Assembly: GCF_964204645.1 (NCBI RefSeq)
Contig: NC_134034.1
Span: 6,298,914 to 6,362,913 of the forward strand
From: Tubulanus polymorphus
Lineage: Eukaryota; Animalia; Nemertea
DNA: 64,000 nt
Reading direction: 5' to 3'
The stretch's first letter is position 1; every line of letters starts with the position of its first letter. This document shows, piece by piece, positions 11,633 through 57,980 of the stretch. The position numbers were made by a program, and so were the translations under genes. The notes below the pieces were generated by a model. That model saw only the letters and a program-made list of their open reading frames with translations. It was not told the DNA's origin and made no database searches.

Positions 11633-12280
11633 TTAGGGTTTTCTGTTATTTCACAGAAAACCCTATTGATATCCGCGTGATTATTATTAGGGTTTTCCGT
11701 TACATCACAGAAAACCCTATTGAGATTCGCGTGTTTCTTATTATTATTATTATTATTATTTTTTTCCACACATTTTTTGTCAAAAGTACATAGGCTTTTT
11801 TACATTACCGCTGTTGCCGATACAATCCGTCTGATATCATTCAGCTCAGTTCGATCTACAAATACTCCGTGCGAATTTTGAAGAATCAACGTTACAAAAG
11901 CACTGTCGGGCCGTTAACTTCGAAAATTGAGCCCCATTCAAAGAGCCGACATGTTTTTCTAAGTCGTCTTTCCGAAATCTACCGCACGTTTCTTGTCACA
12001 TCGATTATCAATTCAAGCATAAATTAACAAATTTATTACCGAAAGATTGCACATTCTGTCGCGGTTTTTAAAAACTAATTTTAACAGTAACCCATTTTCC
12101 TCATCAAATTATATTACTGATACACAGGAAATTTACTACCTTAGATTTTAAAAGCACTGTCGAGCCGTAAACATCGACAAATCGACGTGTGTCACTGCAT
12201 CGTCGTTCCGGGAATCAGCTGCGAGTTTCTCTCATTCTGAGAATCAAATCGAGTACAAATTAATTTATTACTACCAGTGA

Positions 12281-16113: not shown

Positions 16114-16390
16114 TTTGGTTTTGTCGCCCGCGACAATTCATTATTTTGTTTTTGCCGTCCGCGACAATTCATTATTTTGGTTTTATCGCCCGCAACGATT
16201 CAATATTTTGGTTTTAACGCCCGCGACAATTCATTATTGTGGTTTTATCGCCCGCGACAATTCATTATTTTGGTTTTATCGCCCGCGACAATTCATTATT
16301 TTTGTTTTGTCACTCGTGACAATTCAATATTTTGGTTTTGTCACCCGCGACAATTCATAATTTTGGTTTTGTCGCCCGTGGTTTTGTCGG
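16114..16390 (+). repeat. 31-bp satellite array
   Basis: About 9 units. Confidence 0.95.
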
Positions 16391-19489: not shown

Positions 19490-20945
19490 ATGGATGTAGA
19501 AGGTGGAGAAGATATTGGAATGGATACTTCTGATGAACCCGGCATAACTGAAGAACAACCGCCTGATTTTAATGAAAAAAGTTTTAATGACGGTAATGAG
19601 CCAGAATATAATAATAATTTAGCAGATAGTGGTTTTAATGATAATATAATATCAACAGGCGATTTTGATAGAAGAGCTGGACGGAGATTAAATATTGAAA
19701 ATGAAAATCCAGATTTTGTAAGTATAATTTAGAATATAATGAATATATAAATAATTTTAAACCTATATTTAAAAATCTGGATATAATATAAATGATAGAG
19801 GTGCCAGATATTTAGTACAAGAATTAAAATCTTTAGATGGTGATATTACTAACATTTGAAAGATGATAATTATATTAATATCACTTACAAAAATCAAATT
19901 AAAATATTAGCAGAATCAACTTTGAGTAATTTAGAATCATCTAGAATTAAAAGAATAAGTAATAGTAATGAAATAGAAAATGTTACCGACACAGAAATAA
20001 ATCAAAATAAAAGATATTTAAACAAAGAATTAATGAATTATTTGAAATAATCAAAAATAATTTAGAAACAGAAACTTCTGAACAGAATATAACTTCGAAA
20101 ACTAGTAAACTTAAATCAAATAAAGTTCCAATTGAAAAACTTTTACCGAATGGATTACTTGACGCAACAGAACACGAATTAGAAGAATTAGATATATTTT
20201 CTGATAAAGCAATTAGAGAAATTATTAGTATAAGACTTGCATCTGATAAAATTGCGCATGATAAAAGTATAAGAGATTTTAAAATTAGAACTTTAGAAAA
20301 AGATAGAACTTATAAAATCAAAGAAATAGAACAATTGGAATTAGATAAAGATAATAAAGGTATTGAAGAAATTGAATTTAAAAAAGAAATGCATATTAAG
20401 AAAAAGAAAAAGATGATTTAGAATATAACATGGAATTTCAGAAAGAAGAAATTAAATTATAAAAAAAACCATATGATTATAATATTAATAATAGATTAAA
20501 AGTTATTTTTAAAGACTTGTTGATAAAACCAAATTCTGAAATATCATTAAAAGATAGAATAAGATTATTAACTAAGTTAGAAGCTATAACAATTCTTTCA
20601 ATTCTAACAGCTGTAACTATGCTATTTACAACAATTGGTCTAGCTATTTCAAATTCATTAAAATCTACGCCTACACCCAATAAACCGGATAAACCTCCAA
20701 GTCATAAAAATTCTATACAAGATAAAGTTAAAGATTATTTTAAAAAATTAGCAAAATATCTATGGGAACTATCTAAAAAATCTGCTGCAGCTTTACCCGG
20801 AATTATTGCATCAATTATTGGTTTGTATTAAAATCTGCAGGAAATATTCTTAGTTTTGCTGCTGAACATATTATTTTATTTTTAATTACAATTGTTAGTG
20901 CTATTATTTATGGGTTAGTGAATATGATAAAAAATGTAAAATTAA
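19490..20945 (+). pseudogene. Polinton coiled-coil protein with C-terminal hydrophobic/amphipathic helices (putative membrane-active virion protein)
   Basis: Fragmented ORF. C-terminus SLKDRIRLL..ITILSILTAVTMLFTTIGLAI..KKLAKYLWELSKKSAAALPGIIASIIG..AEHIILFLITIVSAIIYGLV. From recall, this gene type precedes the MCP in marine invertebrate Polintons. Confidence 0.6.
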
Positions 20946-20961
20946 TTTTTTTGTTAAATAA

Positions 20962-22121
20962 ATGAGTGGGAGTTATATAAATCCTTCTAAGAATTCTAGA
21001 ATATCTAATGCTATTAAAGCAGAGAGATCTCATAATATAATTACTCATAATCCTTCTAATATTAATCCTGATGATACTTTATATGTTAGAATCCCGAGAT
21101 TAAATCAAAATACTTTTTATGTTCCAAATAGTATTTATTTGATATAAATGTAACTGGTGATAATAATAATTATGTTGTAGATAATGTTGGGAGATATTTG
21201 ATTAAAAAATTAACTATAAAGATTGGACCAGAAACAGTTTTTTCATTAGATGATTATAATTCATTTATGCATTATAAAGATTTATGGTTAACAAAAGAGA
21301 AATAATATGATATTTCAAGGCATCCAAACAGAAAACCATAATAAATTAAGATCAGAAGCTAATAATGCAATAATAACTAATGCTACAGATAATTTGATAA
21401 AAAAGATTTATGGAAGCAAATATAAAATTCCATTGGACTTTGAATTGATAAATAATAATGCCCCTTTATATATAAATACGCAATTCAAGAAGATATTATA
21501 TTCGAGATAACATTTGCTCCTGTTAATGAAATTGTGCTATCTAGCGTTGTTAAAGATATGGGATATAAATTATCGAATATATGTTTAGAACATGATACAG
21601 CAACTGATGAAAATATTTCAAGCATAATTCAAACTCAATACAATCAAGGATTTTCATTATTATATGATTAACTTGATACATTTAAAACTGTAACTATTAA
21701 AGCAAATGATGAAATAATTAATGAGATTATTAACTTCCCAAGAAGATCTATTAAAGGTATATTAATATTTCTTACCATTGCAACATATTCCAATGGTGCA
21801 ATAAATGTTGATAATTATTATAATCCTGAAATATCAAAGGTAGAAATAACTATTGAAGGTATAGCAAATATAATATTTTGTCAAGGAATGAGAATTGAAA
21901 AATCATCTGAAAATTGTAATATTAATCAAATTGATTATTATACCAGCAATAAATATGCATTATGGTTAGATTTAAGAACAACAGAGGATAATTCATTACA
22001 TGGTTCTGGGAAAAAATTACAGAACACTAAAGATGGAATACAATTATTCGAGAGAAAGAAAAAAGGAGACAAAAATTTCAAAATGCACATTTATATTATA
22101 TCTGATGCGAAATTAAATTAA
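20962..22121 (+). pseudogene. Major capsid protein (double jelly-roll, hexon-like), disrupted
   Basis: Motifs IITHNPSNINPDDTLYVRIPRL, NVGRYLIKKLTIKIG, YKDLW, INFPRRSIKGILIF and KYALWLDLRTTEDNSLHGSG match the invertebrate Polinton MCP pattern from memory. Frameshifts and internal deletions present. Confidence 0.75.
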
Positions 22122-22140
22122 CGCAATTAACGATATATAA

Positions 22141-23248
22141 ATGGGGGATAAAAAAAACTCGAAATACTAAAGAACAATATTTAAAAAATTTATATTATAA
22201 CCCTGAGAGTTCGGTTGCTTATTCTTCTACCAAAAATATATGACGTCAAGTAAAACAAGATAAATTAGATAAGATAATCCCACAAAATTTAGTTAAATAT
22301 AAAGATATAAATGATTTTATGTTAGAACAACCAACAAACACAACGCATAAAAAAATGTTAGAAAATATAAAACTCGTAAAACTATGGTAAGTTATGTAGA
22401 TCAACAGTGGCAAGGAGATTTAATTGATATGAAAAATGTTAAGAAAGATAATGATGATTATTGGTGGATATTGAATATAATTGATATTTTTAGTCGTTAT
22501 GTATGGAGCTTCCTACTTTATAGAAAAGATGCTGTACAAATATCAAATGTTTTAAGAAAATTTCTTTCAGGTGGTAAAATAAAGCCAAAAAAATACAATT
22601 TCATGATGGAAAAGAATTTGATAATTCATCTGTTCATGAACTCTTGGATTATCATAATATTAAATATTTTTCAACAAAGTCGGATAAAAAAGCAGCAGTT
22701 GTTGAACGATTTAATAGAACATTAACAACAAGAATGTGGAAATATTTTACAGCGAATAATACTTTTAAATGGATTGAGGTTTTACCAAAATTGATAGAAG
22801 GTTAAAATAATTCTTATCATTCTTCTATTGGAATGAAACTTGGTTGGAATAAATTGTTTTGAATAATTTATATGGAGCATTATTTGTAGATGATTTTGGT
22901 GAACCTAAATTTAAAGTTGGTCGAAATGTTAGAATTTCTAAGTATAAAAAGATATTTGACAAAGGATACGATAGTAATTTTACTAGAGAAATATATAAAA
23001 TAAAAAAGGTGATAACAACAAAACCATATGTCTATAAATTAGAAGATTTAGATGGTGAAGAAGTTGATGGCTACTTTTACGAAGAAGAATTAAGTTTAAC
23101 TACTGAAAATCTAGAACAAGAATATAAAATTGAAAAAGTATTAAAAACAAAAACTGTTAATAGAAAAAAATATTCTTTAGTAAAATGGGTTGGATGGCCA
23201 GATAAATTCAATGAACGGATATTATCGAGTAAAATTAAAAATATATAA
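22141..23248 (+). pseudogene. Polinton retroviral-like (RVE) integrase with C-terminal chromodomain, disrupted
   Basis: QWQGDLIDM, IIDIFSRYVW, KAAVVERFNRTL, PKFKVG..VRISK, chromodomain YKIEKVL..LVKWVGWPDKFN. Confidence 0.9.
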
Positions 23249-23836
23249 ATGAATAAGGAATTATTTATATTAGAGCCTCATAATATGTTAATTTCTGGTG
23301 TAACAAATTGTGGAAAAACTTATTATTTATAAAAACTATTTTGATAATATAGTATTATTTTGTCCAACGTATGAATTTAATCAAACTTATAATAGAAATA
23401 TTACTACAAATAATAAATTTATTGTATCATATCCTAAAACAGTTAAAGAAAATTTAGATAATTGTATTAAAATAGCAATTGATATTTATAAAGGATCAAA
23501 TACATTATTTATCATAGATGATTGTGCTAATTTACATGATTCAAAAATTAGAGAGAGAGTGAATTATGTTATTTAGCTTTCTCTGGAAGACATTTTGGGA
23601 TAACAACGTGGGTTTTAAATCAAAAATATAATTCAATTGTTAAAGATTTTAGAGAAAAAATTAGATTTTTAGTATTATTCTACAATAAAGATAGAAAATC
23701 GATGAAAAATGCGCTTGAGGAAAATGATATTATTCCACATGATTTACGTAATGAATATATGGATAAATTGAAAAATAACAAAAAATCAAAATTACTATTT
23801 CGATTACAACACCCATTTAAATATGAATTCATTTAA
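23249..23836 (+). pseudogene. A32/FtsK-type genome-packaging ATPase, disrupted
   Basis: Walker A GVTNCGKT, Walker B FIIDD, SGRHFGITTWVLNQ. Start ATG abuts the integrase stop (TAAATG). Confidence 0.88.
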
Positions 23837-24015
23837 ACTCAACTAGCTTGTTAATCTAGTATATTTTAGTCACATTCTAGTCAAATCTTAGTTATTCGTA
23901 GTTGAAACAAAAATCAAATAAATTTCAACAAGAAATAAACAAAAACAATAATATTTCGACTAGCTTGTTAATCTAGTATATTTTTAGATACATTCTAGTT
24001 AAATTCTAGTTGTAA
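23836..24015. repeat. Intergenic CTAG/GAATTC-rich imperfect repeat (degenerate copy)
   Basis: Two AACTAGCTTGTTAATCTAGT..ATTCTAGTT-like units; homologous to 57981-58256. Confidence 0.7.
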
Positions 24016-24039
24016 CAACACAATTTTTTTGTTATATAA

Positions 24040-24650
24040 ATGGGAGGCGAAAAGAAAAGAAAATCTAAAAAAGTGATGTTCCAATTGAAAACCTTTGGAT
24101 GATTTAGGTATAACAGAAACAAAATTAACACCAGATAATAATGGTGCTTTAAATGATATTACTACAAACAATAATTATGAATATTATCTTTATTGTAAAC
24201 ATCACTTAGAAATATTAATTGCATCTGGGAAATGTAAAAGTTTTATTAGTAAAAATTCAACTTACAATGAAATAGATACAATGAAATCAGATGAAATTAT
24301 TAGATTATTAAAGATTTATGAAACTGCATGAATAGCTAGAATTAATGATGCGATATCAGAAAATGTAGTAAAAGGTTATAGTAAATTATGTAAATATATG
24401 CTACCAATTCAAGATGAAAATAGATTATATTCCGATTTAAAAAATGATTATTTATTTATGAATGAATTTAATAAATGGATTGGATATTAATCATTTCAAT
24501 TAGGTGGATTTATGACATAATTATCAACTGGAGTCATAACATTTTCAAATATTGAAAGTAAAAATTTTTCTATAATAAATGAGCGAGGTGGAAGAAGTGA
24601 AGGAATTAACTGTGAAGAAAAAACCAAGATCACAGAAACAAATTGAATGG
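24040..24650 (+). pseudogene. Polinton conserved protein of unknown function (homologue of 58285-58890)
   Basis: Colinear with the intact copy at 58285; one frameshift and several stops. Confidence 0.75.
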
Positions 24651-24948
24651 TCTTGGCAATTAGGAATTAAATCGAGAGAATTTAAAAAAGCTATAAAAGA
24701 AAAAATAAATAATGAAAATGTTAATGATAATGATGAAAATATTTTTATTTCTACTCCTTCTGATAATATAATATTTGATAAATATTTATATTTCACCACT
24801 GGTTTTGTAATTGTATTCATTTTGATTGGGTGTAGTTGGTATAAAAAAATCAAATAACATTTATGTTATTAATAATTCTGAAACTACTACTATCAAAAAT
24901 GAAAATACTTCTGAAATTCCAAAATTTACAATAAAAGAAATGGATTAA
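24579..24948 (+). pseudogene. Small basic protein with C-terminal hydrophobic segment (homologue of 58823)
   Basis: MSEVEEVKELTVKKKPRSQKQIEW..FTTGFVIVFILIGCSW. Confidence 0.6.
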
Positions 24949-25097
24949 TATTTTAGAAAAAAAAGCAAAAAATAATTTCATTTTTAATTAATTGAATATC
25001 TCACTACCATTGTCTATCTATGCGGAGCAATTAAATTGTCCAGATAAGTCATTTCGGATTCTTAATATTTAATTAATTTCATTATCAATTTATTTTT

Positions 25098-25423
25098 TTA
25101 ATCAACAACTTCTAAATCATGATGCCCGTCTTTATCTTTCCCATGGTAAATTATTTTAAATCCTTCTAAATCTTTTAATTCCTCTGTACTCAATGCAACC
25201 CATTTATCAGGTAAAAATACTTTAAATTCTCTCGTTGTACTAACATTACAGTAACTTAAATTTGCTGATACTTTCTCTCCATATTTAGTTTTTATATTTT
25301 CTAATTTCAATATTTTGTGTTCAATTTCTTTTGTAACATCGACTAACTTTTTTATTTCAAATTGTTTTTTGCTGGTTTTATTTTGTTATTTATTGTTGCT
25401 AAGAATGCTTTTCTATCTCCCAT
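25098..25423 (-). pseudogene. Terminal small Polinton protein (one frameshift); fold unknown, possibly OB-fold ssDNA-binding
   Basis: Starts at TAATAAATG (25423). KYGEKV..FKVFLPDKW..IIYHGKDKDGHHDLEV. Homologous to 31686-32027. Confidence 0.6.
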
Positions 25424-25508
25424 TTATTAAAAGAAAAAATTACTTGTGGTGATGAGTGGTGTGTCGCCCTCTCGCCCTCTGGTATGGAAACGTCATTTTC
25501 CAATTACT
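25421..25508 (-). repeat. Polinton right terminal inverted repeat (internally collapsed)
   Basis: Reverse complement AGTAATTGGAAAATGACG..GAGAGGGCGACACACCACTCATCACCACAAGTAATTTTTT..TAAATG aligns to 50941-51000 plus 51242-51280. Confidence 0.8.
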
Positions 25509-28500
25509 TGTTGAGATTCATTTGATATTTTTGTAATCTGGACAGAAGCCTTATTAATCAATCTTGGCAGTTTGTAACTCAGATGTGTATTAATATCCAT
25601 AAATTGGCAACGTAGTTTAAATCTTAAACTGAACATATCCAATTATCAAAACTGATTTCACTACAATTCATTTAAAAGTAAACTCTCTAAAACAAAGAAG
25701 ATTTTTTATTATCTCGGATATTTGCCAAGTCACATGGAAGGTTTGTATGTTTGTGTAATGAAATATTATGTGTCTTTTTATATACGGTAAAAACGGTAAC
25801 GTAATTTACGAGTATTTCATTGACAAAGAAAAAGTAATGCTAGAATAAAGGTCAATGCGAAAACTTTTATTTCAGACTTATGACGTAATTTTTCCATGTG
25901 AATTCCACCAAGAGACGGCCTGGACCAGCTTCCAACACGTTTTCTCTTTGTATAGGTACATAGCAAACATCGATAAAACTCTTGACATGCCATTTTGCTG
26001 ATGTATCCAAAATTTGAATAGCCACAAAATCTTTGTTTAACATGTAAAGCTAAATAAGGTATCATTGTTTTCAGAATTCATCTGGCGGTTTTAATAAAAA
26101 CATCCTTTCATGTATATTGTTAAAAATGTAGGCACACAGTAAGCCGGAAGTTCGATGACGTGATTTTCTCCAATTGGTGCCTATTCCTGTGGAATGGGCC
26201 AACATAACCACGTGCGCGTACGATGAGGGGAACAAATTCAAATACAAAGACTTTATATAACCAATTCCGCGATCATAAAGAATCGCTACAATCTTTTCCT
26301 CCGTTATCCCCATTTGATGATTCTTTGTCCAACATTATCCAAAAAGGAATATCCACTAAGTATGCAAATATACAAAATGAATTGTAAGAAGTGAATGTTT
26401 ACTTTTCTTGCTAGACTTAAAATGATAAAATCAGACAATGTTATACCAGGTCATAAGAAAATCCTACTAAATTAATAATGTATGTTAAGCCAACCATGGA
26501 ACCATTGAAAAAAAACCAAAATAGTATGCATGTTGCGTCATGAACATCATCATATAGATCAATGATGGACGTATTAGTTTATAATACGTCCATGATAGTT
26601 AAAGACAGTGTAGGGTCTATCATCCATCACAAGCGGGCTTATGCTTTTACTTACTAAATTTTGAGGCTACGACTACAATTTACTAATTTCAAAACGTCAA
26701 ACAAATTGACAGTTCGTTTAATTTTAAAAACTTCTTAAACCAAACCAGCTTCCATGAAACTATTTAAAATAACGGTGTGTACCGTATTTAAATCAATTAA
26801 TTTTGTATGCACCGTATTAGGACCAACTCGCAGTTCAACGGCAAAGGGCCCAAATTTTCTAGGGCTAATTTATGCAGTAAGGAATTTTACCTTAAAGGGT
26901 TATAATCTCACAAGTTGATTTGGGCACAGGAATTGCAATTATTTTCTGTAGTACCCAGCTAGACTGTGAGTCACAGGAAATTAGTGCTTTATGCTTAAAG
27001 TGGTCATGAAGAGGTTTTTGAGTTATGGCTAAAAGTATTTTCTTTCATCAATTGTAAACTATTTATTGATTTAGTGGTCAAGAAATTAATTTTTAATTCT
27101 TCAATTAGTGTTAAAACGAAACTTTTGATCGGCCGTGCTGATTCCTTCCCAAACCGGAAGTGTGACGTCATTCTGAGAACCCAGACCAAAGCAACATGGT
27201 GTAGTGTATAGAATCGGGTGTTACTAACAGCGATTAAAGTGCAAAATAGTGACCCAAATACATCAGATTCCAATCAAACGTCTGAATTTAGGAAGTCAAC
27301 AGTTGTTATTAATAGACAGTCGAAATTATTCAATTTAATTTGGACCTGATGCCTCAGAACGAAGGGATTTGTGACTATAGAACAGCATATTTCTACGTCG
27401 TGGAGCAGCGAGCATTCATCATCATTTAAGTGATTCCCTCTTTGTTAAAACTACGCCGAGGGGATGACTGATATAGATATCGCAAATATTTCTGTGGGTA
27501 GTTAAACCGTTGTTATACGCTTGCTTTAATAGCGGGGATAATTTCAGACACTAGCTACAGTTTATGCACATAGGTTGATAGGTTCATAAAATAGGCCTAA
27601 CTTTTGAAATTTTATTTTTATCCAACTGCAGGTTTGGATGACTTTTTAAGCTCAATTACCCAATAGGTCTCACGTAGCATAAAAAGGGAATCCGAATCGC
27701 CATCAGGGACCAGGGAGGATGCCCGAGTAAAAGTCCCGTGCCCCAAAATGTACAGTATGGGGCATAATTTTCCCGTCTGGTTAGAGCGTTTTGAGAGCTA
27801 CTGCACATTGTCCGGTGTATGTAGCAGTGAGCTTAAGAAACAACATTTACTAACGTACCTGGACCACGAGTCATACCAGGCGTAAACCTACGTCTTGCCC
27901 CATCCCTGGATTACAATAGTTTCGTTAAGGGGATAAAGGACCGTATGTCATTGACACGGTCAGCTTCCGATTTCAAAATGATGTTGAAATCTCGAGAGCA
28001 GAAACCCCAAGAAAACATCGGGCAATACGCGGATGCATTGACAACTCACACAGAGCGCGTGCCCAGGGATTGATCACAGTTTGCAGGATGAGTTGGCACG
28101 TGACCAATTCTTGGCAGGTGTGGCGGTACCCTCGAGTGTTAGGGAGCAGTTGTACAGTCTCTATCGGTGTCATTGGCTCGGGGTCATGAGACTGCGCGGC
28201 TCCTGACTGATAGACACGAGTCCAGACCCCTCGTCGACACGTAAATGAGGTGAAGGCCAGTCAGACGGATGAGCTACTTTCGGAACTCGTGGGCCTCGTT
28301 AAGGGTTTGAATGTCCGGATGGACGGTTTAGAGGCCAGGGTTAACACACAGACTCAGGCCAACTCCCAGGGGAGGGGAGGGACAACATATGCTGGCGGTG
28401 TCGAGAACCGGTTCATACAGCGGAAACATGTCCGCAGGTTGCATGTCATACATGTTCTGGTAGAGGTCATTATGCCAGGAATTGCCCCGGGAAATAGGGA

Positions 28501-31685: not shown

Positions 31686-32027
31686 TTATTCGAAATCTAT
31701 TTCATGGTGCCCTTTTTCATTCTTACCTTTATATATGAAATAGAAATCACCTGAACATAATTCTTCTAAATCTTCACTTGATAATCTATGAAATCTATCT
31801 GGTAAATATGCTCTGAATTTATATTTATTTCCTTTTAATCCTTCATATTCTAAATGGAAAACTAATTTATCTCCATATTTGTTAGAAACTGTATCAATAG
31901 TAGTAATTAAATATTTCTTATGAATTGTTAGTTCATTTAACTTCTTAAATTTATAATCTACTGATTTGACATTTGTAGTATCTTTTATTCTATTTAAGAA
32001 TTCACTGTGTATTTGTTTACTCTCTAT
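31686..32027 (-). pseudogene. Terminal small Polinton protein, homologue of 25098-25423
   Basis: Manual translation: FLNRIK..FKKLNEL..KYGDKLVFHL..FRAYLPDRFHRLSSEDLEEL..FIYKGKNEK.HHEIDFE. Start codon decayed, so it is absent from the ORF track. Confidence 0.65.
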
Positions 32028-33315
32028 TTTAATAACATATTTTTTATTAAAATTGATTTTAGAAGTTATTAGATGAATATTTTAAGAATAATAGGGAATA
32101 AGTTGTTTCAAGTCAAAGGTTGGAAGGTCGGAAAATAAATTCGAGTGTGCGAGAATTTATTTTTCGATATATTTCGATATATTTCCCTATTACTGACGCC
32201 GACCTCGAGTGGATCATACGCCATTTCGGTCCGAGTAACGATAAGCCAAATTGGGAGAATGTATCAGGGCAGAATTCAGCCACAAAGTTCCTTTGGGCTA
32301 GATGGTTTAAGCTACATCTTATCAACGGTGCTCTATATATAAAGAAAGAGCGTTCGGGTTTGCCTACATCGACACTCTTGTTATTACCAAAACCGTACCA
32401 CCGAGATGTATTCGACCAACTTCATGCGACAAAAACAGCTGGTCATTTCGGCATCAAGAAAACATTGTATAAAATTCACGATCGATTCTACTGGAATAAC
32501 ATAGCCAGAGATGTTCATGATTGGTGCGTCGCTTGCCGCGAATGTCAAACACGAAATAGTCCAGCTCGAAAAACTAGGGCTGAACTACGACCCTCAAGTT
32601 CAGGTTTACCTCTCGAAAGAGTCGCCATGGACATATTAGGCCCATTACCTGAGACCGATAATGGTAATTCATATATCTAGTTATCGGTGATTATTTCACT
32701 AAATACGTCGAATTCTTTCCGATACCGAATCAAGAGGCACTTACCGTTGCCGACACGTTCGTAAAGCATTTTGTCTGTAAGTTAGGGTGTCCCCTCGAAT
32801 TGCACACCGATCAAGGGGCAAACTTCGAGTCTTAGCTCATGGCTGAGTTATGTAAGATTCTCGAAATTAAGGAGACGAAAACTTGCCCTTATAGACCCCA
32901 ATCCGACGGCATGATCGAACGAATGAACAAGACACTAATTAATAGCTTGTCAATGTTCGTTAATCAAAACCACTCTGACTGGGACGAACAATTGCCGTTC
33001 ATCGCTATGGCCTATCGATCGGCTGTTCATGATTCGACTAAATTCACCCCGAACTACCGGTAACTGATGTTCGGGTATGAAAAACCGTAAAGTGAATGAT
33101 GTAGTGTATGAGATACACAAAGATGAGAAAATTAAACGAGTGCATTTCGACCGACTTACATTATACGAGCGAGAAAATGAAACAAGACCGCAATTCGCTG
33201 AATTGACCTTCCGGAAACCTAGTCCAGACCCACCCACCTATACCAGGTCGGGAAGAAGAGTTGTACCACCACGGCTACTCGCTCTGTAACTTTGAATATC
33301 ATTATACATTTCAGA

Positions 33316-38846: not shown

Positions 38847-41800
38847 ATGGCATCGAGAAAAATTTAACCCCGTCGTCGTCGTAAGGTCCGTTGACCTTCT
38901 AGTGTTTGCTGCCTGGAATGTAAAGATCATTCGATATATTGTCCCTTCTGTGAAATGTGGAGCCATTCAAGCTGCGAGAAAATATCAGCAAATATATTGG
39001 AAAGTCTTGGTGAACTGCCTGGAAATTATAGCTGCAACTCGTGCCGCCACGAAGAAGACGGTTCATTATCTTATGGCCACGCACTAAAACGATTGGAAGA
39101 GTCTGCGATGAAAGGAATAAAAGGTCTAAAGGATGAAGCAAAAATGCTTACGTTACTTTTCCCTGACCAAGAGTCGAAAATGCAATTATCCGTAGTTAAA
39201 GAGTCAGAACTTCAAGTCGATGGGTACAGCAAACACCTGCTAGATAATGATCGGACCATCGAATAAGATTCCAATTCGAGTTCGAGGAAATGGAAATTGT
39301 CTATTTAATTCAGTTTCCGTCGCACTTTCAGGAACAGAAGAATTGGCGACGGAACTGAGAGTACGAACTTGTATGGAAATGGTATTGAATTCAACATTCT
39401 ATAAGAACCATGGTAATTATGCTGACTTCCTAAAGTGTTCTCCTGAATTCGACACAGCATGTCTTGAAGCTGCCAAGAACCACTCATATTCTTCGATATT
39501 TACAGTTCAGGCATTGGCAACCGTTTTACAACGGCCAATAATGTCCGTGTACCCAGCAGTCAACGGAATTTTTGATCATTGCGCTAGAATACTTAATTGC
39601 AATTTTAATCCAAGAGACAAAGGTATCGCCAAGAAAAGAAAACGACAAAATCAACAAGAAATCTATTTAATGTGGACTAAGTCGACTACAGATGAAAGGC
39701 CAAGAACAGATGGAACTTGGTTACCAAACCATTTCGTTCCACTATTGGAAAAAGAAAAGGCGATGAAGGAACGAAAGGTAGGGCCACCACCCGAGCAGAA
39801 ACGAGTTGAACAACGTAAGAAAAGGAATGTCCATTTTACTCCAACCAAAAGAGAAATGAAATCGACGAAATGGCCGAAAAGCGGGCCGAAATATCAGTCC
39901 AGTCCGACGACACACATAAACACCAGAAATCAGCAACCAGTTTGAAAAGAAAACCGTTCCAGTCGAAGAGTTCAACCGAAGTGAATTTTTGACATCATCT
40001 CCGATTCTTGATGAATCATGGGATTTATCACCGAAATCAAGTCTTGAGGAAAAGGATGAATTTCAGGAAACCGATGGACTGAATGCAAGTCGAAAAGTAA
40101 GAGAAATCAGTATGTGTGTGGATGTCGAGGGAACGAATGAATTTTCAGTAATGTCAGAAGAAGTTATAGAAGATACGTCGATCAATTACCAACGTCTTCA
40201 GAACGGTCGTTTCCTTGATAGCATGGATATACTTGGTATTTGTGAAAACACAAAAAAAACACACCAAAATTAACTCAAATCCCATGTGGCGTTAAAGAAA
40301 ATTTGTTTTACGTGCTCGACAATAGCCAGAATGTCGATAGGAGAAAGAAACAATATAAAAGTAATTTTACAGATGATTGCGGCGCTTGGGTATCGAGCTC
40401 GTCATCCACAAAGAAAGTGCTCCTTTATCCCGAAGGTGATCGCTACAAAGTGACAGAACTAAACAAGAGCCCCAAGGGGCACAATGGCCAGCCTGTCAGA
40501 TTTGCTTTTTATAAATGATGTAATCTGTGGGTTATATTTATCAATATACACTCCCTGCTCAATATCATTTACATAGTAAAATCGTGTGTTAACACAGACA
40601 GCAGGAACGAATGTAATATAGAAATACTAAGTTATTGTATTGTTCAACGCCCCCTGGTGGCCATAAAAAAAACCAATGAGCTTGAAACTCACCTCGATCA
40701 TAGAACATGTCATGAGCTACAACTTTCCAATTGATTATAGTAGCAAAATATGCTTAAGTATCAATTATGATGTGGAAAAACTTTTTTTCCACCTACGAAT
40801 GAGTACTGATGACCCCAAGATGGCTGCCAAGTGCGTCATAATTGCCTGGTCAAAAATACCCTCTCGGATATAAAAGATCCCTTTCCAAAGAATACCCATT
40901 ACAAATTGCAATGAAACATGGCGCACCATTAGAAAGCTACAGTACTCAGAATTCAGGCCAAAATTGACATTTTTGGGAACAAAAAAGGTCACAGTACGGC
41001 CATCTTGAGTCCGATCGACTCAATTTTTCTCATGCCGATGGGCCCTCGGGGGATACAAATATATACGAATGATCAAGGTTATTGATAAAAGTGTCTTCAA
41101 AATTTCCCTCGAAAATTTCAAAAATGTGTAAAAAGTGCTGATTTTGGCGAACAACAATGGCTGCCAGTCGGCCATCTTGAATCTGACAGGGCCAGTTTTT
41201 GGCCTGAAGATGTGTCTAGGGTAGATACACGTATAAAACAAATATCAAGACATTACGTTGAAGCGTCTTCAAAACTTTGGAACTCTCACGAACTATCTAG
41301 ATGGTTATCTCTCGACCTCAATAGCTTCAAGACCCATCTCAAACAACTTTGTTCCATGCAGCATACCATTAACTCTCGGAAAGCGAATTGTATTTAACAT
41401 TTTTTGGCAGAATAAAATTTGATTGAATTTGCAATTCGGGCACATGGCTAATTAGCATATCAAGGTCATACACCCGATTTGGTAAAACCTTTTTTTCGCG
41501 AACCTTGCGCAATTGTCAAGGATGAATTTTCTGTAGAGCAAATAAAAATTCCTCCCAAACACCAAATCAACTAAAGATTTCATAGAAATCGATCTTGAAA
41601 TACAATTTTAAATCTGAAAATAAAACCCGGAAGTAAAACAGTAGACGATACCGCGGATTCACGTGAACACCTGATTTCTGTAAACGAAATGTTGGTTGTG
41701 ACAAAATTGTTCAGACGATTTTAGGTGGTAATAAGTACAAAAACGTAACGACCATGGTCGACTTATTCGATGAAATCAGGCCTATGTGATATCCAAATTT

Positions 41801-44294
41801 TGACTTTTTTATTCTCCAGACCTCCCTGATATAGAAATAAAAAATGTTGGTGGTACGAAAGTGCAATCACAGCGCCGACGGGGACAGAGCCGTGTCAGAG
41901 ATCGGCGGAGTGAAAATTGAGGTGGACGAACACGAAGAAGTAGGCAATTGCGCTACTTGAATCACGAAAACTCCTGGCGCGGCCCCGACGCTTTTCGTTG
42001 ATTAAGTAATACAAATATCATGCAATGGGTTTTCACAATCTACCGCTGGTATTTACCGGATTTCAATATCACTCCAAAATTCAAAGAAACCTCGAATCAT
42101 CGAACCGGAACACTTCCGGTAGATATCCGCGGCTGCCCAACCGGGAAACTTATTTGTTTCAATAGATATTGATAGGATCCATCATCTTCACCCGTCAAGG
42201 GATTCGAACCCACTAAGCTAAAGCCATGCCAGAATCGGGTCGGGCAAATCACAGCGCTTGTAACAAACCACATTAGGCTTCTGTGGAATTTCCCAGTAAA
42301 TGGGCCAATCAGCGAACACGTAGCGAACGCGGAAGTATTGTCGCGTGTGATACATGACGTCATGCGCAAAAGCGCCAGTAATGAAATCGCGATAATTCAC
42401 GTGAACAGCTGCTGATATTTTCAGATAAACCAATCACAGGGAAGACACAACTTCCTGATTGGCTGATAAAAATTGAAATTTTCCCGATTTAACTTTCGTG
42501 AAAAATGCAGAAAACATTTTTATGAGACCCTATTTCAAAATTCTGCTCGCTACGATTCCGAGAATGGATTACGCTTAAATACGTGATTTGTTCGAATATG
42601 CCCTCACTTGGCAAGCAAAAGAGCCTTTTGTGTGGAAACCATGTCATTTAAATTCGCTCCATTTGTATAGTAATAGGCTCAGCCTACGGCTGGCCTAAAA
42701 ACAGTCTATATTTTACTAAAATCAAGGGTGAATGGTTACCATTGGAGCCGCAGTCAAATCGCGATGATATCGTTGATCTTCGTCGTTTCTACGCAACATT
42801 AAAACGAAAAAACGACTATAAGAAGCGCATTTCTTGGATCGAAAACGGACCAGCTAAATTCAACCAGACAATTTCTGTTGTTGAATACATCGGTGGATTC
42901 CCTACCACTAGAAGCGCTCATGGCCACGCAAAGCATTCAACAAATGAATACATCCGCACGGCACCAGATAGAATCGAAACGATATGTAGAGAGGTTGAGA
43001 ATAATAACCCAAGCACAGTATATCGGCAAATGGCTCAGGCGGATGACTCGATCGATGCTCCACGTAATTTGAAGCAAGTCCAAAATGCGAAATATAAAGT
43101 CGACCGCGAGAAACGAGATGCCCAGACCGCAACAAAATCGAACAGAAAAAATACAGCGGACGATATGCAAACAGTCATGAATATGATGGGAGAAAACAAA
43201 TTCATAAAGGAGATCGTACAACTAGACGGCAAACCACCGAATGTCATCCTGTACACCGATGAACAATTGCACGATGTTCGCAAGTTTTGTATTGAGGCCG
43301 AGCATCCTGAAGTTTTAGGTGTTGACCGAACTTTCAATCTCGGTCCGTGTTATCTAACACTTACAGTGCATAAAAATATCAACTTGTTACGCTGTAAAAC
43401 TAATGAACCTCCAATTATGCTGGGCCCTATGTACCTACACTGGGATGGATTATGTATTACTTACCAACGTTTTTTCCCATCTTAGAGCGGCACTTGAAGG
43501 CGATATAACTACTCAGGTCGGATTTTCTGAGCTTTTAGTCGGTTCCGACGAAGAAACGGCGCTACTGAAAGCCATCAAACAAAGTTTTCCGAACGCCCAA
43601 CAGGTATTATGTCATCGACATTTGGAAGAAAACGTCCGGAGACACCTTCAACACAAGGTCGGGGCGAATGATAAAATAAAACACAATGTGATTAAATCTA
43701 TATTTGGAAAAAACGGTATTTTAGATAGCGAAAGTGAATTTGATTTCGAGAACATGGTAATGAATATAAGATAGAAGATCACGCGTGTAGTTCCAAATTT
43801 TCTATCTTATTTTGAGAAACTCGTTCCAAAACTTAAAAAGTATGTATTTGAACCAAAATTAAGAAACCATTGGATTCCTACGAATTGGACAAATAACAAA
43901 TTGCGAGTCATTGAATCACGTTATTAAGAGGGCGATAAACTGGAAAATTCAGAAAGTGCCCGACTTAATTACAAATGTGCACGAGATCGTACGACTTCAG
44001 TATATTGACATGAGGCGAGCTTTACACGGCCAAGGAAATTACCAACTCGCCCCGAAATTGAGAAATTTTGCAGTCAGCCATGCAGTATGGGCAACAAAAA
44101 CTAAAGATGAAAAAACAAAACATTTTGAAAAATTCATGAAATATAAAACACCACGCAAAGTTAACAACGTAATCACCTCAACAGATGGTACTCTATGCAT
44201 CCCAAAAACGGCTACAACTGCGAAGAAGCCCGGGCAGAGAAAGCGAACCAAAAGTGAACGAACGACACCTGCTCGAAGAAAATTAGATATGTAA
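38847..44294 (+). pseudogene. MULE transposase fused to an N-terminal PHD finger and a vertnin/OTU-like cysteine-protease domain
   Basis: PHD C..C/CPFC..WSH..C/CNSC; OTU-like GNGNCLFNSVS...NHFVPLL; DDCGAW; DDE core VLGVDRTFNLG, GSDEETAL, CHRHLEEN, WTNN.CES.NH. Frameshifted and split by an insertion at 40464-42696. Confidence 0.85.
40464..42696 (-). mobile_element. HINE/DINE-1-like element (family C) inserted into the MULE ORF
   Basis: On the minus strand, 5' TTTTAGGCCAGCCGTAGGCTGAGCCTATT and 3' CAGGCTGGCCATTGTGCCCCTTGGGGCTCTTGTT (subTIR GGCCAGCC plus stem-loop). Inserted in a T-run. 40620-41277 is homologous to the family A interior. Confidence 0.8.
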
Positions 44295-50940: not shown

Positions 50941-51280
50941 AGTAATTAGAAGATGGTGTTTTCAGATCAGAGGTCGAGAGGTCGAGACACCACTCATCAC
51001 AGCTAGGCTCTAGTGAGAACGGACGATTGCTCTGTGACACACATATACAGTGAGTGCGCGTAACAGCAGCTGCGCGTGGATAGATCGATACAGTGAGTCT
51101 CTACTGAGAACGGTTATTAACGCGTGTGCTATTACTGTAGTACAGTGATTGCGTGTCAACTGTACCCAGATAAATAGATGCTGTGAGGCTTGGGTGAGAA
51201 CGGTTAATAGCGTGCTTGTTATATACAAGGGGAAGTAATCCCCACTCATCACCACAAGTAAATTTTTTTCCTTATAAATG
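50941..51280 (+). repeat. Polinton left terminal inverted repeat (~340 bp)
   Basis: Aligns to the reverse complement of 25421-25508. Internal direct repeats CCACTCATCAC (50990, 51242) and TGAGAACGG x3. Confidence 0.8.
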
Positions 51281-54200
51281 GAAGAGAATAAGACAGAATA
51301 AATTGATGTTAATGAAAATCAATATCATTGTCCATATTGTAAAAAATACATTGATAAATCTCAAAAATCGCGTCATGAAAAGTCTTCAAATCATATAAAA
51401 AATGTAATAGATTTTGAAACTCCAGAAAATTCCAATGAAAGAAAAGAACGATTAGAAAATATGAATGTGGATGAAATAAAATGTGAAGTTTGTAATGAAT
51501 TTATAGTAAAAAGGAATTATAATAGACATCTCGAATCACAAAAACACCATCAAAATTTGAGTAATAATGTTTTAGGAAAAGATTATTTCGATGATAAACC
51601 TCAAAAAGTAAAAAAACCAACTTCAAAAACTAAATCCATTTCAAATAAACCTTACATGGAAAATGTTAGAAATTATATTGATTCACTAGAAATAAAAGAT
51701 ACAATTGAAATTTTAGAAACATTACATAGTAAAATTGGTCCTGCAGCTATTATATTTAGATTCTTTAAAGGTACAACAATAGAAGATTATAGTAAATTTA
51801 ATGAAATAATAGAAAAAATACTAGATTTGATAACAGATGTTGAATATCCAAAAATTAGTATCTCTGGGAAAGTAAGTTTTATAAAGTCAGAAGAAAAAAT
51901 GAATTATAATATTCAAACACACTCTGAAGAAATAATTTCAAAAACACAAATAAAAGAGAAGTTAGAAAAAATATTTAATGGATTTAAACGTCATATTGAA
52001 AAAAGATATTTTGAGGGTTCTGGCTTAACATTGAATGAAATTATATTTTTAGATTTAAATATTTATAATACAAAAAGAAATAAAACATCAAAAAGTAAAA
52101 CAATGTTTAAAAATGATTCAAACTTTACAACAGAAAAGGATATTAAAGCATCATCTTATATTAAATTACCATTTACGACAAAAGCAGTAATAAATATTCA
52201 AAATGAAGATAATAAATGTTTTCTATGGTCAATTATTAGTTGCTTACATCCAACACAGGAAAATGTTCGTAGAATAACAGATTATCGGAAATATGAAACA
52301 TTATATAAAATTGATCAATATCCAGTAACTATAAAAATGATACCCAAAATAGAAAAAATTAATAAGTTAAAAATAAATATATTCGAATTAATGCAATTAC
52401 CAAAGACAAAAGGTGAAAATATTAAAGATTATACATTGGAAGCTTTATATTTAACAGAATATTATGATGATGAAATTGCTATAGATTTGTTATATTACAA
52501 AAAAAATGAAAATGAACATTATATGTGGTTAAAACAAATTGATTTATTCTTTAGAACAGAAAGTGATTTTAACAGCCATAAAATTTATCTATGTAGAAAA
52601 TTTAGAACTGAGAATGCGTTACTAAAACATAAAGAATTATGTGATAATAAAGATTTTTGTAAATTAATAATGCCAACAGAAAAAGATTATAAATTGAAAT
52701 TTACTAATCATAAATTTAAGAATATTGTTCCATTTGTAATTTATGGGGATTTTGAATCGTTGAATAAAGAATTAACTGATCAAGATAGAAAAGAAATATA
52801 TAACAAAAAGCAATTATTAAAATCAATGGATAAAGGAAATGAATTAAATGAAGACACAATACAAGACCCACCAATTATAAATACAATTAAAAAAGTTCAT
52901 CAAAGAGCTGATGCTTATGGAATTTACATCAAATCAAATTATCCCGAATTATATGAAAGTCAATATATTTCTTTTAGAGGTGAAAATGTAGTTAATGATT
53001 TTTGTGACAAAATGATTGAATTAGAAAGTGATTTTGCAAAATTATTAAACAAAAATAAAAGAATAGTTATGACAAAAGAAGATGAAATTGATTTTAATTA
53101 TGCAACTCATTGTTGTTATTGTGAAAAACGTTTTTATTCATTTGATAAAAAAGTTAGAGATCATAATCATTTAAATTCAAAATATCGTGGAGCTGCTCAT
53201 GAAGATTGTAATTTACAAGCTAAGAAAGTTAATTTCGTACCAATATTATTTCATAATTTATCAGGCTATGATACCCATCTATTTATAAAACAATTATCGG
53301 GAAAATTTGGGGCAATTAATCAAGAAATAGAAGAATATAATGTTATGAATGGTACAAATGTAAGAAAATATGATTTTAAACTATTAGCTAAGACATCTGA
53401 AAATTATATTTCATTTCAATTTGGTTGCATTAGATTTTTAGATTCTTATAGATTTCTAGCAAGTTCATTAGATAATTTATCAAAAAGTTTAGTTGATAAT
53501 GATTTTGTTATAACTCGATATTATTATCCAAATGAACAAGATTTTAAATTATTGAGATATAAAGGCGCAATTCCTTATTCATTTTATAAAACACATGATG
53601 ATTTTAATGTAACAAAATTATTAAAAGATCAATTTTATGATCAATTAAAAGAGGAGTATGTGAAAGATGAAGTGTTTTATAGAACATTAAATATTTGGAA
53701 CCATTTTAAGATGAAAAATCATGGTGAATTAGTTGATTTATATTTAAAATCAGATGTTATGATATTGGCTGACATATTTGAAAAATTTAGAGAAGTTAAT
53801 TTGAATAATTTTAATGTTGATCCTTGTTATTGCTACTCTAGTCCTGGTTTAACCTGGCAATGTGGTTCAAAATATACAAATGTAGAATTAGATTTATTAA
53901 AAGAACCAGACATGGTTTTATTATTTGAAAAATCAATTAGAGGTGGAATTAGTGGTGTTATGGGAGATAGGTATTTTAAAGCAAATGATGAATATAAATT
54001 ATTATATATTGACGCCAATAATTTATATGGTTGGGCAATGATGCAACCTCAACCATATAAAAATTTTATATTAACAGAAGTTGAAAAAAATAACAAAACT
54101 GATTGGGAAAGCGCAATTGCGAGTATAAAAGATGAAGCACCAATTGGTTATTTCTTTGTAGTTGATTTAGAATATCCTGAAAATATAAAGTTTAAAACAA

Positions 54201-56327
54201 GAAACTTACCTTATTGCCCAGAACATTTAACTGTAGATGATAGTTATTTAAGTGAATACCAGAAGAAAATAAAACCGAAAGATCATGTTTTTACAGAAAA
54301 ATTAATACTTACTCAAAATAATAAATACAATCATATTGTTCATTATAGAATGTTAAAATTTTATCTAAAACAAGGAATGAAATTAAAGAAAGTACATAGA
54401 TATATTGAATTTAATCAATCGAAGTGGTTAGAAAAATATATAGATTTCAATACTCAACAGAGAACCATATCAAAAACAGATTTTGAAAAAGATTTCTTCA
54501 AATTAATGAATAATAGTTTTTATGGTAAAACATGTGAAAATATTAGAAATAGAAATGATATTGAATTAGTAAATAATTCTGAAAGATTAAGACATTTACA
54601 ATCAAGTCCTAGACATTTAGGAAATAAAAGATTTGAATATTATTTAACAGCAGTTAAATTAAAAAGAACATCAATGAAATTTAATAAACCTATATTTATT
54701 GGTTCGACTGTTTTAGAAGTATCAAAATTATTAATGTATGATTTTTATTATAATGTTTTACAACCACTTTTTGGGGAAAAGCATATTGAAATATTATATT
54801 TTGATTCTGTAACAGCTGACACCCCAATATTATTAAAATGTAATGATAAAATATTGATAAGAAGAATTTCAGAAATAATTCCAAAACAAAATGAATGTTA
54901 TATTTCATATGGAGAAAAAGAATTAATACAAATAAATGGTTTAATGGATGTTTGGACAAGAAATGGATGGAAAAAATTAAAGAATATTATTAGGCATAAA
55001 ACAAATAAGAAAATCTATAGAGTTAGAACTAAATTAGGATTTGTAGATGTTACAGAAGATCATAGTTTAATTAAACGAAATGGTGATGAAATAAAACCAA
55101 CTGATATAAAAATTGGAGATGAATTATTACATAAAAGATTTTTCCAAAGAATGAATCATATGTCATTTGATGAAATTATTGATAATATTTATAATATAGA
55201 ACCCGAAACATTAGAAGAAAAAGAATATTTTATCAAAGGATTTTTCATGGGTGATGGTTCAGCAGGTGTGTATAATTATGTTTGGGGTAATAAATATTGT
55301 TGGTATTTATGTAATCAAGACTTAAAATTATTATAAAGAATTAAGAAATTCTGTGAAGAAGTTTATTCACGTAAAACATTTAGAATCATGGATCATATGA
55401 AATCATCAGCAGTTTATAGAATACTTGTAAATAATCCTAAAGATTTTGCTATAAAATATAATGATGAATTCTATATTCATGCAATAGTGAAAAGTAATAC
55501 TTCAACTAAAGAAAAGATAGTACCAGATTATGTATTAAATGCAAAAAATAATTTAAGAAAGTGGTTCTTCATTGGATTCTATGCCGCAGATGGCACTAAA
55601 AAATTTGCAAAGGAAAAAAGATAACATTTGCACAGAAAGGAAAAGTTGCTATATCAGGATTAAATATATTATGCAGTTCATTAGGATTTAATATGAATAT
55701 AGAATTAATTAAATCTAAACCAAATTGTTTTAATTTAAGGCATGTAGAAAAAGAATTAACAGAAGAAGTTAAAGATTTATTTGAAATATATAACCCAACA
55801 GATTATGTTTATGATTTATCAACAGATGATGGAACATTCAATTCTGGGTTCCCATTAATCCAAAAAAAATACCGACAGTTACATACTAAAAATCAAGACA
55901 AATGACATAACAAAAGACTTAAAAACATTAAAACATCATTTTGATTTTAGCAATTATCCCAAAGATCATGAACTATTTAGCAATGATAAAAAAAAAGATT
56001 CCTGGTAAATTTAAAGATGAATTAGGGGGTGATGAAATGATTGAATTTGTTGGGATAAGAAGTAAAATGTATAGTTATAGAACAAAAGATCATGAAGCTA
56101 AAAAGTTAAAAGGAATAACAAAACATGTGGTTGATAAACATATAGAATTTCAAGATTATATAAAGTGTTTATATAAATCAATTGTAATGAAACACAAAAT
56201 GAATTGTTTAAGGTCAGAAGATCACGAGATGTACATTAATGAAGTTGAAAAAACTAGTTTAAATCCATTTGATGATAAAAGGCATATTTCAGATGATGGT
56301 ATAAAAACATTACCTTAAGGCCATTAA
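51278..56327 (+). pseudogene. Protein-primed family B DNA polymerase (Polinton type) with N-terminal C2H2 fingers, OTU-like region, EndoVII-like insert and an intein
   Basis: In-frame ATG at 51278 (stop at 51299). CPYC..H..H and CEVC..H..H fingers; NKCFLWS..HYMW; Exo I YGDFES; CCYC..VRDHNH..AAHEDCN; Exo II FHNLSGYD; Exo III YLKSDV; Pol YIDANNLYG, KLMNNSFYGK, YFD/[intein]/TDS, GKFKDE, KKLKGI, DDKR. Stops at 51299, 55334 and 56316; frameshifts in A-runs at ~55620, 55862-55869 and 55988-55996. Confidence 0.95.
54806..55870 (+). mobile_element. Intein with LAGLIDADG homing endonuclease (~355 aa) inserted in PolB motif C
   Basis: Block A SVTADTPIL directly after YFD; block B DVTEDHSL; LAGLIDADG-type FIKGFFMGDGS and FFIGFYAADGT; block F YVYDLSTDDGTF; block G LIQKN followed by extein TDSYI (after removing one A from the A8 run). 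Confidence 0.93.
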
Positions 56328-56560
56328 AACATAAAATCAATATCATCATACTCGAAATCACTATTGGCTTCTTCATTTTCATTTAATTGTTCAGGTTCTT
56401 CTTCAATTTCATTTTTCTCATTTAAATAAAGTTCTATCTTGTTCCACATTTCATCTCGCTCTCTTTGTTTCTTTTTGTTTGTTAATTCATCAAATGGAAT
56501 TATAATATCTATGTTTAAATAATTTACAATCTTATTTAAAAAGAATTCATAATTTATTGA
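56324..56560 (-). pseudogene. C-terminal remnant of a poxvirus late transcription factor 3 (VLTF3/A2)-like protein
   Basis: Open 78-residue frame SINYEFFLNKIVNYLNIDIIIPFDELTNKKKQRERDEMWNKIELYL..., resembling the VLTF3 C-terminal NY.F.L.KI...W motif (from recall). 5' part lost at the deletion junction. Confidence 0.6.
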
Positions 56561-56561
56561 A

Positions 56562-57371
56562 TATTGGTGGTTATTGAATATAATTGATATTTTTAGTCGT
56601 TATGTATGGAGTTTCCCACTTTATAGAAAAGATGCTGTACAAACATCAAATGTTTTAAGAAAATTTCTTTCGGATGATAAACTAAAACCAGAAAAAATAC
56701 AATTTGATGATGGAAAAGAGTTTGATAATTCACTTGTTCATGAACTTTTAGATAATCATAATATTAATTATTTTTCAACAAAATCAGATAAAAAAGCAGC
56801 AGTTGTTGAACGATTTAATAGAACATTAAGAACAAGAATGTGGAAATATTTTACAGCAAATAATACTTTTAAATGGATTGATGTTTTACCAAAATTGATA
56901 GAAGGATATAATAATTCTTATCATTCTTCTATTGGAATGAAACCTATTGATGCTAGAAAACCTGAAAATGCTGAAATTGTTTGGAATAATTTATATGGAG
57001 CATTTCTTGTAGATGATTTTGGTGAACCTAAATTTAAAGTTGGTCAAAATGTTAGAATTTCTAAGTATAAAAAGATATTTGATAAAGGATACGATCGAAA
57101 TTTTACTAGAGAAATATATAAAATAAAAAAGGTAATAACAACAAAACCATATGTCTATAAATTAGAAGATTTAGATGGTGAAGAAGTTGATGGCTACTTT
57201 TACGAAGAAGAATTAAGTTTAACTACTGAAAATCTAGAACAAGAATATAAAATTGAAAAAGTATTAAAAACAAAAACTGTTAATAGAAAAAAATATTCTT
57301 TAGTAAAATGGGTTGGATGGCCAGATAAATTCAATGAATGGATATTATCAAGTAAAATTAAAAATATATAA
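56562..57371 (+). pseudogene. Polinton integrase with chromodomain, N-terminally truncated
   Basis: IIDIFSRY, IQFDDGKEF, KAAVVERFNRTL, YNNSYHSSIGMKP, chromodomain LVKWVGWPDKFNEWI. Confidence 0.92.
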
Positions 57372-57980
57372 ATGAATAAGGAATTATTTATATTTGAGCC
57401 TCATAATATGTTAATTTCTGGCGTAACAAATTGTGGAAAAACTTATTTTATATTAAATTTATTAGAAACTGTTTATGAAAACTATTTTGATAATATAGTA
57501 TTATTTTGTCCAACATATGAATTTAATCAAACTTATGATAGAAATATTACTAGAAATAATAAATTTATTATATTAGATCCTAAAACAGTAAAAGAAAATT
57601 TAGATAATTGTATAAAAATAGCAATTGATATTTATAAAGGATCAAATACATTATTTATCATAGATGATTGTGCTAATCTACATGATTCAAAAGTTTGAGA
57701 AAGTGAGTTATGTTATCTAGCTTTCTCTGGGAGACATTTTGGGATAACAACGTGGGTTTTAAATCAAAAATATAATTCAATTGTTAAAGATTTTAGAGAA
57801 AACATTAGATTTCTAGTTTTATTCTACAATAAAGATAGAAAATCGATGAAAAATGCACTTGAGGAAAATGATATTATTCCACATGATTTACATAATGAAT
57901 ATATGGATAAGTTGAAAAATATTAAAAGATCAAAATAACTATTTAGATTACAACACCCATTTAAATATGAATTTATTTAA
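57372..57980 (+). pseudogene. A32/FtsK-type packaging ATPase (single premature TGA at 57696)
   Basis: GVTNCGKT, LFIIDDC, SGRHFGITTWVLNQKY; the frame continues to TAA at 57978-57980. Confidence 0.9.

Follow-up and report, generated by a model that had tools for sequence, protein, structure and literature searches.

In a window of 64,000 nt, the whole stretch of DNA analysed here, the catalytic motif of a Polinton DNA polymerase B of the protein-primed type (pPolB) is interrupted by what is best read as a decayed LAGLIDADG intein at the pol-c site. We consider it quite probable, taking the parts of this reading together, that the intein family entered Polintons once and long ago from the RNA-primed PolB of large DNA viruses, that it has been kept by homing among copies of the element, and that the genome in question is that of an animal. 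A bolder version is offered tentatively and rated somewhat below an even chance: that working homing inteins reside in animal chromosomes, having crossed from giant-virus RNA-primed to protein-primed PolB and then between two Polinton classes, where they act as a gene drive that selects D-C-D-S and D-T-D-A escape alleles.

The insert comprises 1065 nt (355 codons) between LYFD and TDSYILK of an AT-rich open reading frame (Table 1), and the earlier note, which had described the YFD-TDS motif as split by an insert of this length, gave its coordinates exactly. At the equivalent place YFDTDS is uninterrupted in P0238-P0240, the closest empty relatives among the polymerases listed, which are 72-73% identical to the window protein over the polymerase core (best 120 of 7130 matches to a core query). 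All of the intein blocks previously named from the sequence were found: SVTADTP with its Ser1, TEDH, FFMGDG, FYAADG, VYDL, the terminal Lys-Asn and Thr+1. The class 1 intein residues of the insert are accordingly an N-terminal Ser, the block B TxxH, the block F Asp, the terminal Asn and Thr+1, with Lys in the penultimate position in place of the usual, non-obligatory His. The Lys-Asn ending had been called atypical, a description that does not hold within the family, whose complete inteins end in KN in 45 of 85 cases and in HN in 27. Because the N-terminal piece of the insert is 62% identical over 272 aa to the intact intein of the Polinton polymerase P0004, its assignment as an intein lies far beyond chance; the Pfam Intein_splicing model scores 25.5 bits on the broken window piece, below the cut-off of 35.8, and 42.4 bits on the intact relative P0005, above it. 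The insert lies between YxD and TDS of a PolB and is related to inteins found at that position, in agreement with the pol-c designation already proposed and with the site as given in the part of PMC549080 consulted. These motifs and likenesses support the view that the insert is an intein of LAGLIDADG type, located at the pol-c site of the pPolB.

Table 1. Features of the intein-bearing Polinton and its sister copy in the window
Feature	Coordinates	Strand	Basis
Sister copy of the Polinton, degraded and lacking pPolB; it has a capsid-like gene (20962-22121), an integrase and an ATPase	19490..25510	+	
N-extein of protein-primed DNA polymerase B; open from 51302, probable start at 51278	51278..54805	+	PF03175, 69.4 bits (cut-off 25.8)
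Intein (Hint plus two-motif LAGLIDADG endonuclease), 355 codons, broken copy	54806..55870	+	Motifs, relatives; fold from intact relative
Block B, T-E-D-H	55052..55063	+	Motif
First LAGLIDADG motif, FIKGFFMGDG	55229..55258	+	Motif
Second LAGLIDADG motif, FFIGFYAADG	55565..55594	+	Motif
Block F, V-Y-D-L, in shifted frame	55807..55818	+	Motif
C-extein of pPolB, starting TDS; frame change near 55990	55871..56318	+	Sequence
rve-type integrase with chromodomain, 5' part missing	56553..57371	+	Match to rve in a truncated gene, E 4e-7; 30.6 bits, slightly below the cut-off of 32.6
A32-like packaging ATPase, first open piece	57372..57698	+	PF04665 (Pox_A32), 30.3 bits (cut-off 22.8)

The insertion is uninterrupted in frame in P0004, P0006, P0259 and other relatives; in the window copy it is not. 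One stop codon (55334-55336) and two frame changes that cancel each other (near 55610 and near 55862-55869) had all been anticipated, while two further lesions do not appear in the earlier note: a third frame change, in the C-extein near 55990, and an in-frame stop at 51299-51301, after the probable start. To judge from its reading frame this copy can neither splice nor home, which lowers the likelihood that the copy is active and leaves its identity as an intein unaffected. The GC and GC3 fractions of the intein (0.25 and 0.14) lie close to those of the extein (0.23 and 0.12), and base composition accordingly carries no sign of a recent arrival.

The presence of a Hint fold was addressed with an intact relative, P0125, which is almost pure intein, is 49% identical to the window piece and was modelled with an 86-row alignment (pLDDT 93.4). 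The model predicts a Hint domain enclosing a LAGLIDADG domain, and its top PDB matches are the intein and endonuclease structures TliVMA, PhoVMA, PI-PkoII, PI-PfuI, PI-SceI and I-DmoI. Its best named viral matches (BFVD) are NCLDV PolB inteins at 21-32% identity, Megavirus PolB being a structural match of only 28%.

The element around the polymerase is itself degraded. We infer that an internal deletion removed the 5' part of the integrase gene from the window copy, on the basis of comparison with the sister copy and of loose read ends at about 56560. The shared parts of the two Polinton copies are 87-90% identical; the capsid-like gene, with a Capsid_N match of E 3e-4 and 20.8 bits (below the cut-off of 24), is present only in the second copy and missing from the one that bears the intein. 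No maturation protease was seen among the window ORFs scanned. Among the 25 longest of 346 inverted pairs, a match of 62 nt (84%) links the left end of the intein copy to the right end of the second copy, and these 25 include no other candidate for a terminal inverted repeat at the Polinton ends. The remainder of the window is satellite and transposon DNA, with a Gypsy-like element, MULE-like and pogo-like transposases and an OTU ORF. A compound satellite, in which 31-bp arrays alternate with 155-bp arrays, fills positions 1-16400, and the OTU protease ORF (PF02338, 33.6 bits) lies upstream of a broken MULE-like transposase at 38895-44294. Two small AT-rich ORFs of similar flavour, both on the minus strand and without a Pfam match, lie at the end of the second Polinton copy (25098-25385) and inside the Gypsy-like region (31686-32081). 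A search of Rfam gave no match.

Of the ten runs listed, four contain the stretch and a fifth comes from another study under the same species label; reads of four runs were placed on positions 53500-57000 at 85% likeness. In X5, an Illumina run from another study of which about 12% was used, mean depth is approximately 405 over the N-extein, 208 over the intein and 388 over the C-extein, values that suggest a multicopy family. Besides the reads that cover the intein, there are 60 reads with 41 different starts that lack exactly 1065 nt; occupied and empty alleles therefore coexist. In a further 23 reads the two flanks are connected across a recoded site. At the intein's stop codon 209 of 210 reads differ from the window, and at each frame change some reads differ in length, from which the lesions look particular to the window copy. 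No single read or contig in this genome shows an intact copy on one molecule.

Inteins of the same kind recur in other Polintons. The first 176 residues of the insert, used as a query, retrieved 183 proteins, and of the four best among the 120 listed, three are polymerases of Polinton type in which an intact intein occupies this site, the other listed matches being RNA-primed PolB or topoisomerase II; identity to the query is 67% in P0004, 51% in P0005 and 53% in P0006. With the P0004 intein searched against shorter proteins (202 matches, 120 listed), and a representative search that added 126 new proteins, of which one was a classifiable Polinton match (P0476) and 18 were unclassable, the tally of Polinton-type clusters with this intein at this site is at least 18 besides the window: 17 established by BLAST of the exteins, plus P0476. 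Intact examples include P0004, P0005, P0006, P0259, P0126, P0128 and P0129, and some ten further fragments have Polinton-like flanks with an extein too short to class. Several clusters are large (P0259, 136 members on contigs of up to 1.0 Mb; P0129, 121; P0125, 55). The window-type polymerases may be called Beta-like and P0006 Alpha-like, labels that we assign provisionally from Pfam scores. The Polinton inteins measure 333-355 aa and follow the target triplets YFD, YMD, YSD, ASD, YLD or YGD; all eight intact Polinton inteins that were aligned retain the two acidic residues of LAGLIDADG as well as those for splicing. Two of the Polinton polymerases are filed under bacterial names, P0126 (a Thiodiazotropha MAG) and P0243 (Sulfurimonas sp.), probably through host DNA in the bins.

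The ancestry of the family was examined in trees of 50 and 51 inteins (IQ-TREE, LG+G4), drawn from 115 rows and 11 loci and rooted on topoisomerase II inteins. Fragments P0404 and P0420, which belong to Polinton clusters, the long-branched P0119, which in a first tree had fallen inside the Polinton clade, and other long or redundant rows were excluded, and the sampling contained no archaeal pol-c inteins. The nine Polinton inteins included fall into a single clade (100/100). Next to it (95/91 and 94/91) stands, as sister, a 100/97 group in which PolB inteins of giant-virus type are accompanied by four of phage type, the bootstrap of the joining branch being only 94-95, and both lie within a wider 99-100/99 group of RNA-primed PolB inteins. 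Among alternatives chosen after the trees were seen, a placement of the Polinton inteins outside all RNA-primed inteins is rejected (p-AU 0.008), and P0006 need not be placed among the window-type inteins (p-AU 0.279). A search for the splice-junction pattern found 15 viral, 11 metagenome and no prokaryote-genome loci, of which only L024 is of Polinton type; of the 15 viral contigs, which share this C-terminal signature, 13 bear the name GVMAG, with exteins of giant-virus type. The closest relatives outside Polintons are inteins of uncultured GVMAG and phage type, at about 37-42%, and annotated phages yielded two weak partial matches.

The intein trees and the classing of the exteins agree with the separate origins of intein and host polymerase that the earlier note expected. 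Its further proposal, a transfer from an RNA-primed NCLDV PolB into this Polinton, stands in part: the relatives are indeed RNA-primed PolB inteins, many of them from giant-virus MAGs, while phages also occur in the sister group and the transfer is not specific to this element. All Polinton inteins found fall in one old clade, which makes the transfer a single, old event and not a recent one in the window element, and we regard it as likely that the family entered Polintons once, from giant-virus-type polymerases, Mimivirus itself being no more than a possible donor. Among window-type polymerases the identities of intein and extein run in step (r 0.96 over 15 pairs, which are not independent), so that the intein must be a long-standing resident of Polintons. 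A recent direct transfer from a Mimivirus-like virus into the window copy is rejected. P0006 departs from this regularity, with an intein 39-46% identical to the other Polinton inteins and an extein core without a real match to theirs (best E 6e-4). Such an intein in a polymerase whose core can barely be aligned points to a jump between Polinton classes, and we infer that a sideways move placed it in this second class.

Related inteins are found in other settings too. Inteins of the phage-type polymerases P0009, P0013, P0014 and P0150, one of which lies on a 236-kb contig, nest among those of giant-virus type, likely through transfer between bacterial and eukaryotic viruses. Type II topoisomerases (P0007, P0058, P0069, P0070, P0075, P0082 and others) contain related inteins at D|TDG. 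The resemblance of this site to the D|TDS of PolB suggests that an intein jumped from one gene to an unrelated one in which the target codons are similar. In L008, L010, L013 and L019, giant-virus-type PolB inteins of the same signature range from 264 to 480 aa, probably as a result of decay or gain of the nuclease.

Several observations suggest that the intein is likely still spreading by homing between Polinton copies. On a tree of 140 N-exteins, from which the target columns were left out, the occupied state requires 12 changes, 10 of them forced by supported branches. The P0259 group, compared at the protein level for 15 of its 136 members (few independent events; two fragments stop short of the site), contains seven occupied and eight empty copies, the latter being six cluster members and two close neighbours. 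Within the 50 residues that surround the site, each of the eight empty copies departs from the occupied reference at 10-14 positions, compared with 1-6% outside this region (Fisher p 7e-4 to 7e-12). The flank in the occupied copies agrees with other subfamilies (at 13 of 16 residues) and not with its own empty sisters, a pattern that co-conversion would leave. The empty copies of this group read D-C-D-S in three cases and D-T-D-A in five. Across the N-extein tree these sequences replace D-T-D-S in empty Polinton polymerases in 50 and 19 of the 140 rows, respectively, nearly all of them within a single large clade in which occupied copies occur as well, and they may represent escape alleles. 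The empty P0394, of the P0391/P0394 family, keeps its site unaltered, and in the occupied fragment P0144 the intein is followed by T-D-A, so that altered sites are not always protective.

The history that best accommodates these results would begin with one old transfer from the RNA-primed PolB of a large DNA virus into a Polinton pPolB. By known intein chemistry, intact copies would splice by an acyl shift at Ser1 with the block B Thr and His, attack by Thr+1 and cyclisation of the terminal Asn. Splicing would restore D-T-D-S, unspliced polymerase would be dead, and the intein would therefore be nearly free of cost to the element and hard to lose. The nuclease would cut the empty site in another copy, whose repair from an occupied one would transfer the intein with a short flank; such conversion could take place among copies in the same nucleus or during co-infection. 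One sideways jump would then have reached the barely alignable polymerase class of P0006. With nothing but a short conserved motif to link RNA-primed to protein-primed PolB, the initial jump was probably a rare event, in keeping with the single clade.

An intein merely inherited with its Polinton lineage, now and then lost by precise deletion and no longer homing, would account for the parallel identities of intein and extein, for trees that agree in outline and for the fact that only four of the 120 closest polymerases listed are occupied, the nearest (72-73%) being empty. We think this improbable, given nuclease motifs that have stayed intact across inteins just 43-47% alike, differences in the P0259 group that cluster at the site beside a flank fitting other subfamilies, and the occurrence of the intein in two polymerase classes that barely align. 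The donor might instead have been the PolB intein of a large bacteriophage: the four phage-type polymerases (phrog_262, E 1e-77 to 1e-163) have inteins in the sister group, and a tree constrained to unite Polinton and phage inteins is not rejected (p-AU 0.058). In both trees, however, the phage inteins lie inside a group that is otherwise of giant-virus type, the next branches out are also non-phage, and a eukaryotic virus would share a cell with a Polinton more readily; a phage donor is accordingly more doubtful still. That a giant-virus intein was joined to a Polinton by assembly error might be suspected from the several breaks in the window copy, two of them in A-runs, yet it has next to no probability. 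The intein is covered by independent reads as well as by three sets of contigs, its left junction is crossed by contigs, the 18 other clusters have the same arrangement and GC and GC3 match the extein, findings that refute a chimera at the junction of intein and polymerase.

The host is likely an animal, and germ-line integration is likely, to judge from the sequence context and the relatives. The repeat landscape of the window described above argues in this direction, as do the coral Stylophora pistillata as the source of a named polymerase relative (P0355, 37%), the nearest Atlas clusters to P0259, which are mostly from Arthropoda and Mollusca where recorded (scores of 0.83-0.84, to be taken as leads only), and the filing of the intein-bearing P0126 under a symbiont MAG 'ex Ctena', which we take to be a clam. 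Were the hosts protists, fungi or symbionts of animals, the finding would reduce to a further case of an intein carried by virus-like elements in microbial eukaryotes. The modest Atlas scores and the origin of many relatives in metagenome assemblies leave room for this, as does the occurrence of similar PolB genes in non-animal eukaryotes (Starrett 2021, PMC8502044, in the part consulted), but against the animal evidence it seems to us unlikely.

The intein allele itself is known; what is new is the class of its host protein and, likely, the kingdom. The earlier remark that inteins are regarded as absent from animals is borne out by a statement in the consulted part of PMC8529194, and the eukaryotic surveys list only fungi, algae, protists and NCLDV (PMC5784728, in the portion available). 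An intein clade so widely distributed among Polinton polymerases would form an exception to this metazoan absence, though one located in a viral element and not in a gene of the host. The clade shows that a pol-c intein can pass between the RNA-primed and the protein-primed kinds of PolB, although these have little in common apart from the target motif, and it places on record gene flow between large DNA viruses and Polintons. Since occupied, empty and altered-site alleles occur together in single genomes, the homing cycle and resistance to drive are testable from existing assemblies. In the literature covered, no splicing intein is described from a Polinton polymerase or from an animal genome, with supplements, Repbase, InBase and subscription journals lying outside that coverage; nor does one appear in the accessible portions of PMC12220804, PMC5718144 and bioRxiv 10.64898/2026.10.13.758929.

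The element itself resembles the Polintons/Mavericks (adintoviruses) of Starrett et al. (2021, PMC8502044) and Barreat and Katzourakis (2021, PMC8097293), as far as their available text goes, in its pPolB, rve integrase, A32 ATPase, capsid-like gene and degraded host copies; the word 'intein' occurs in neither main text. Among known inteins the nearest model is that of the Mimivirus PolB (R322; 351 aa), which, according to the part of PMC549080 seen, occupies the same pol-c site (YGD|TDS, position III) and has a length close to that of the Polinton inteins, and with which Ser1, terminal Asn, Thr+1 and LAGLIDADG are held in common. In contrast to NCLDV pol-c inteins, the host protein here is no RNA-primed enzyme of Pol-delta-like kind but the protein-primed PolB of an integrating Polinton with many chromosomal copies, the target site varies more, and the closest relatives are the uncultured GVMAG and phage-type inteins. 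In the same part of their paper Ogata et al. (2005, PMC549080) judged it implausible that homing could take place directly between genes so distant from each other.

Inserted nuclease domains of the HNH and VSR types have been described in the pPolB of Polintons (Jeong et al. 2023, PMC10748475; Krupovic et al. 2024, PMC11161782), and one sentence in the consulted text of the latter speculates that these inserts derive from intein invasions. They are retained domains for which the available text describes no Hint domain, and 'intein' has no occurrence in that of PMC10748475; the insert reported here differs in being a complete intein with a LAGLIDADG nuclease, located in the catalytic motif itself. 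Nuclear inteins are known from fungi, algae and Anaeramoeba, with viruses proposed as vectors and with movement within the genome, and the main texts of these reports (Green et al. 2018, PMC5784728; Gallot-Lavallee et al. 2023, PMC10710043), so far as available, mention none from metazoans or Polintons and do not contain the word 'Polinton'. Compared with these nuclear inteins, whose homing is bound to meiosis, an intein carried by a multicopy Polinton would always have empty targets at hand.
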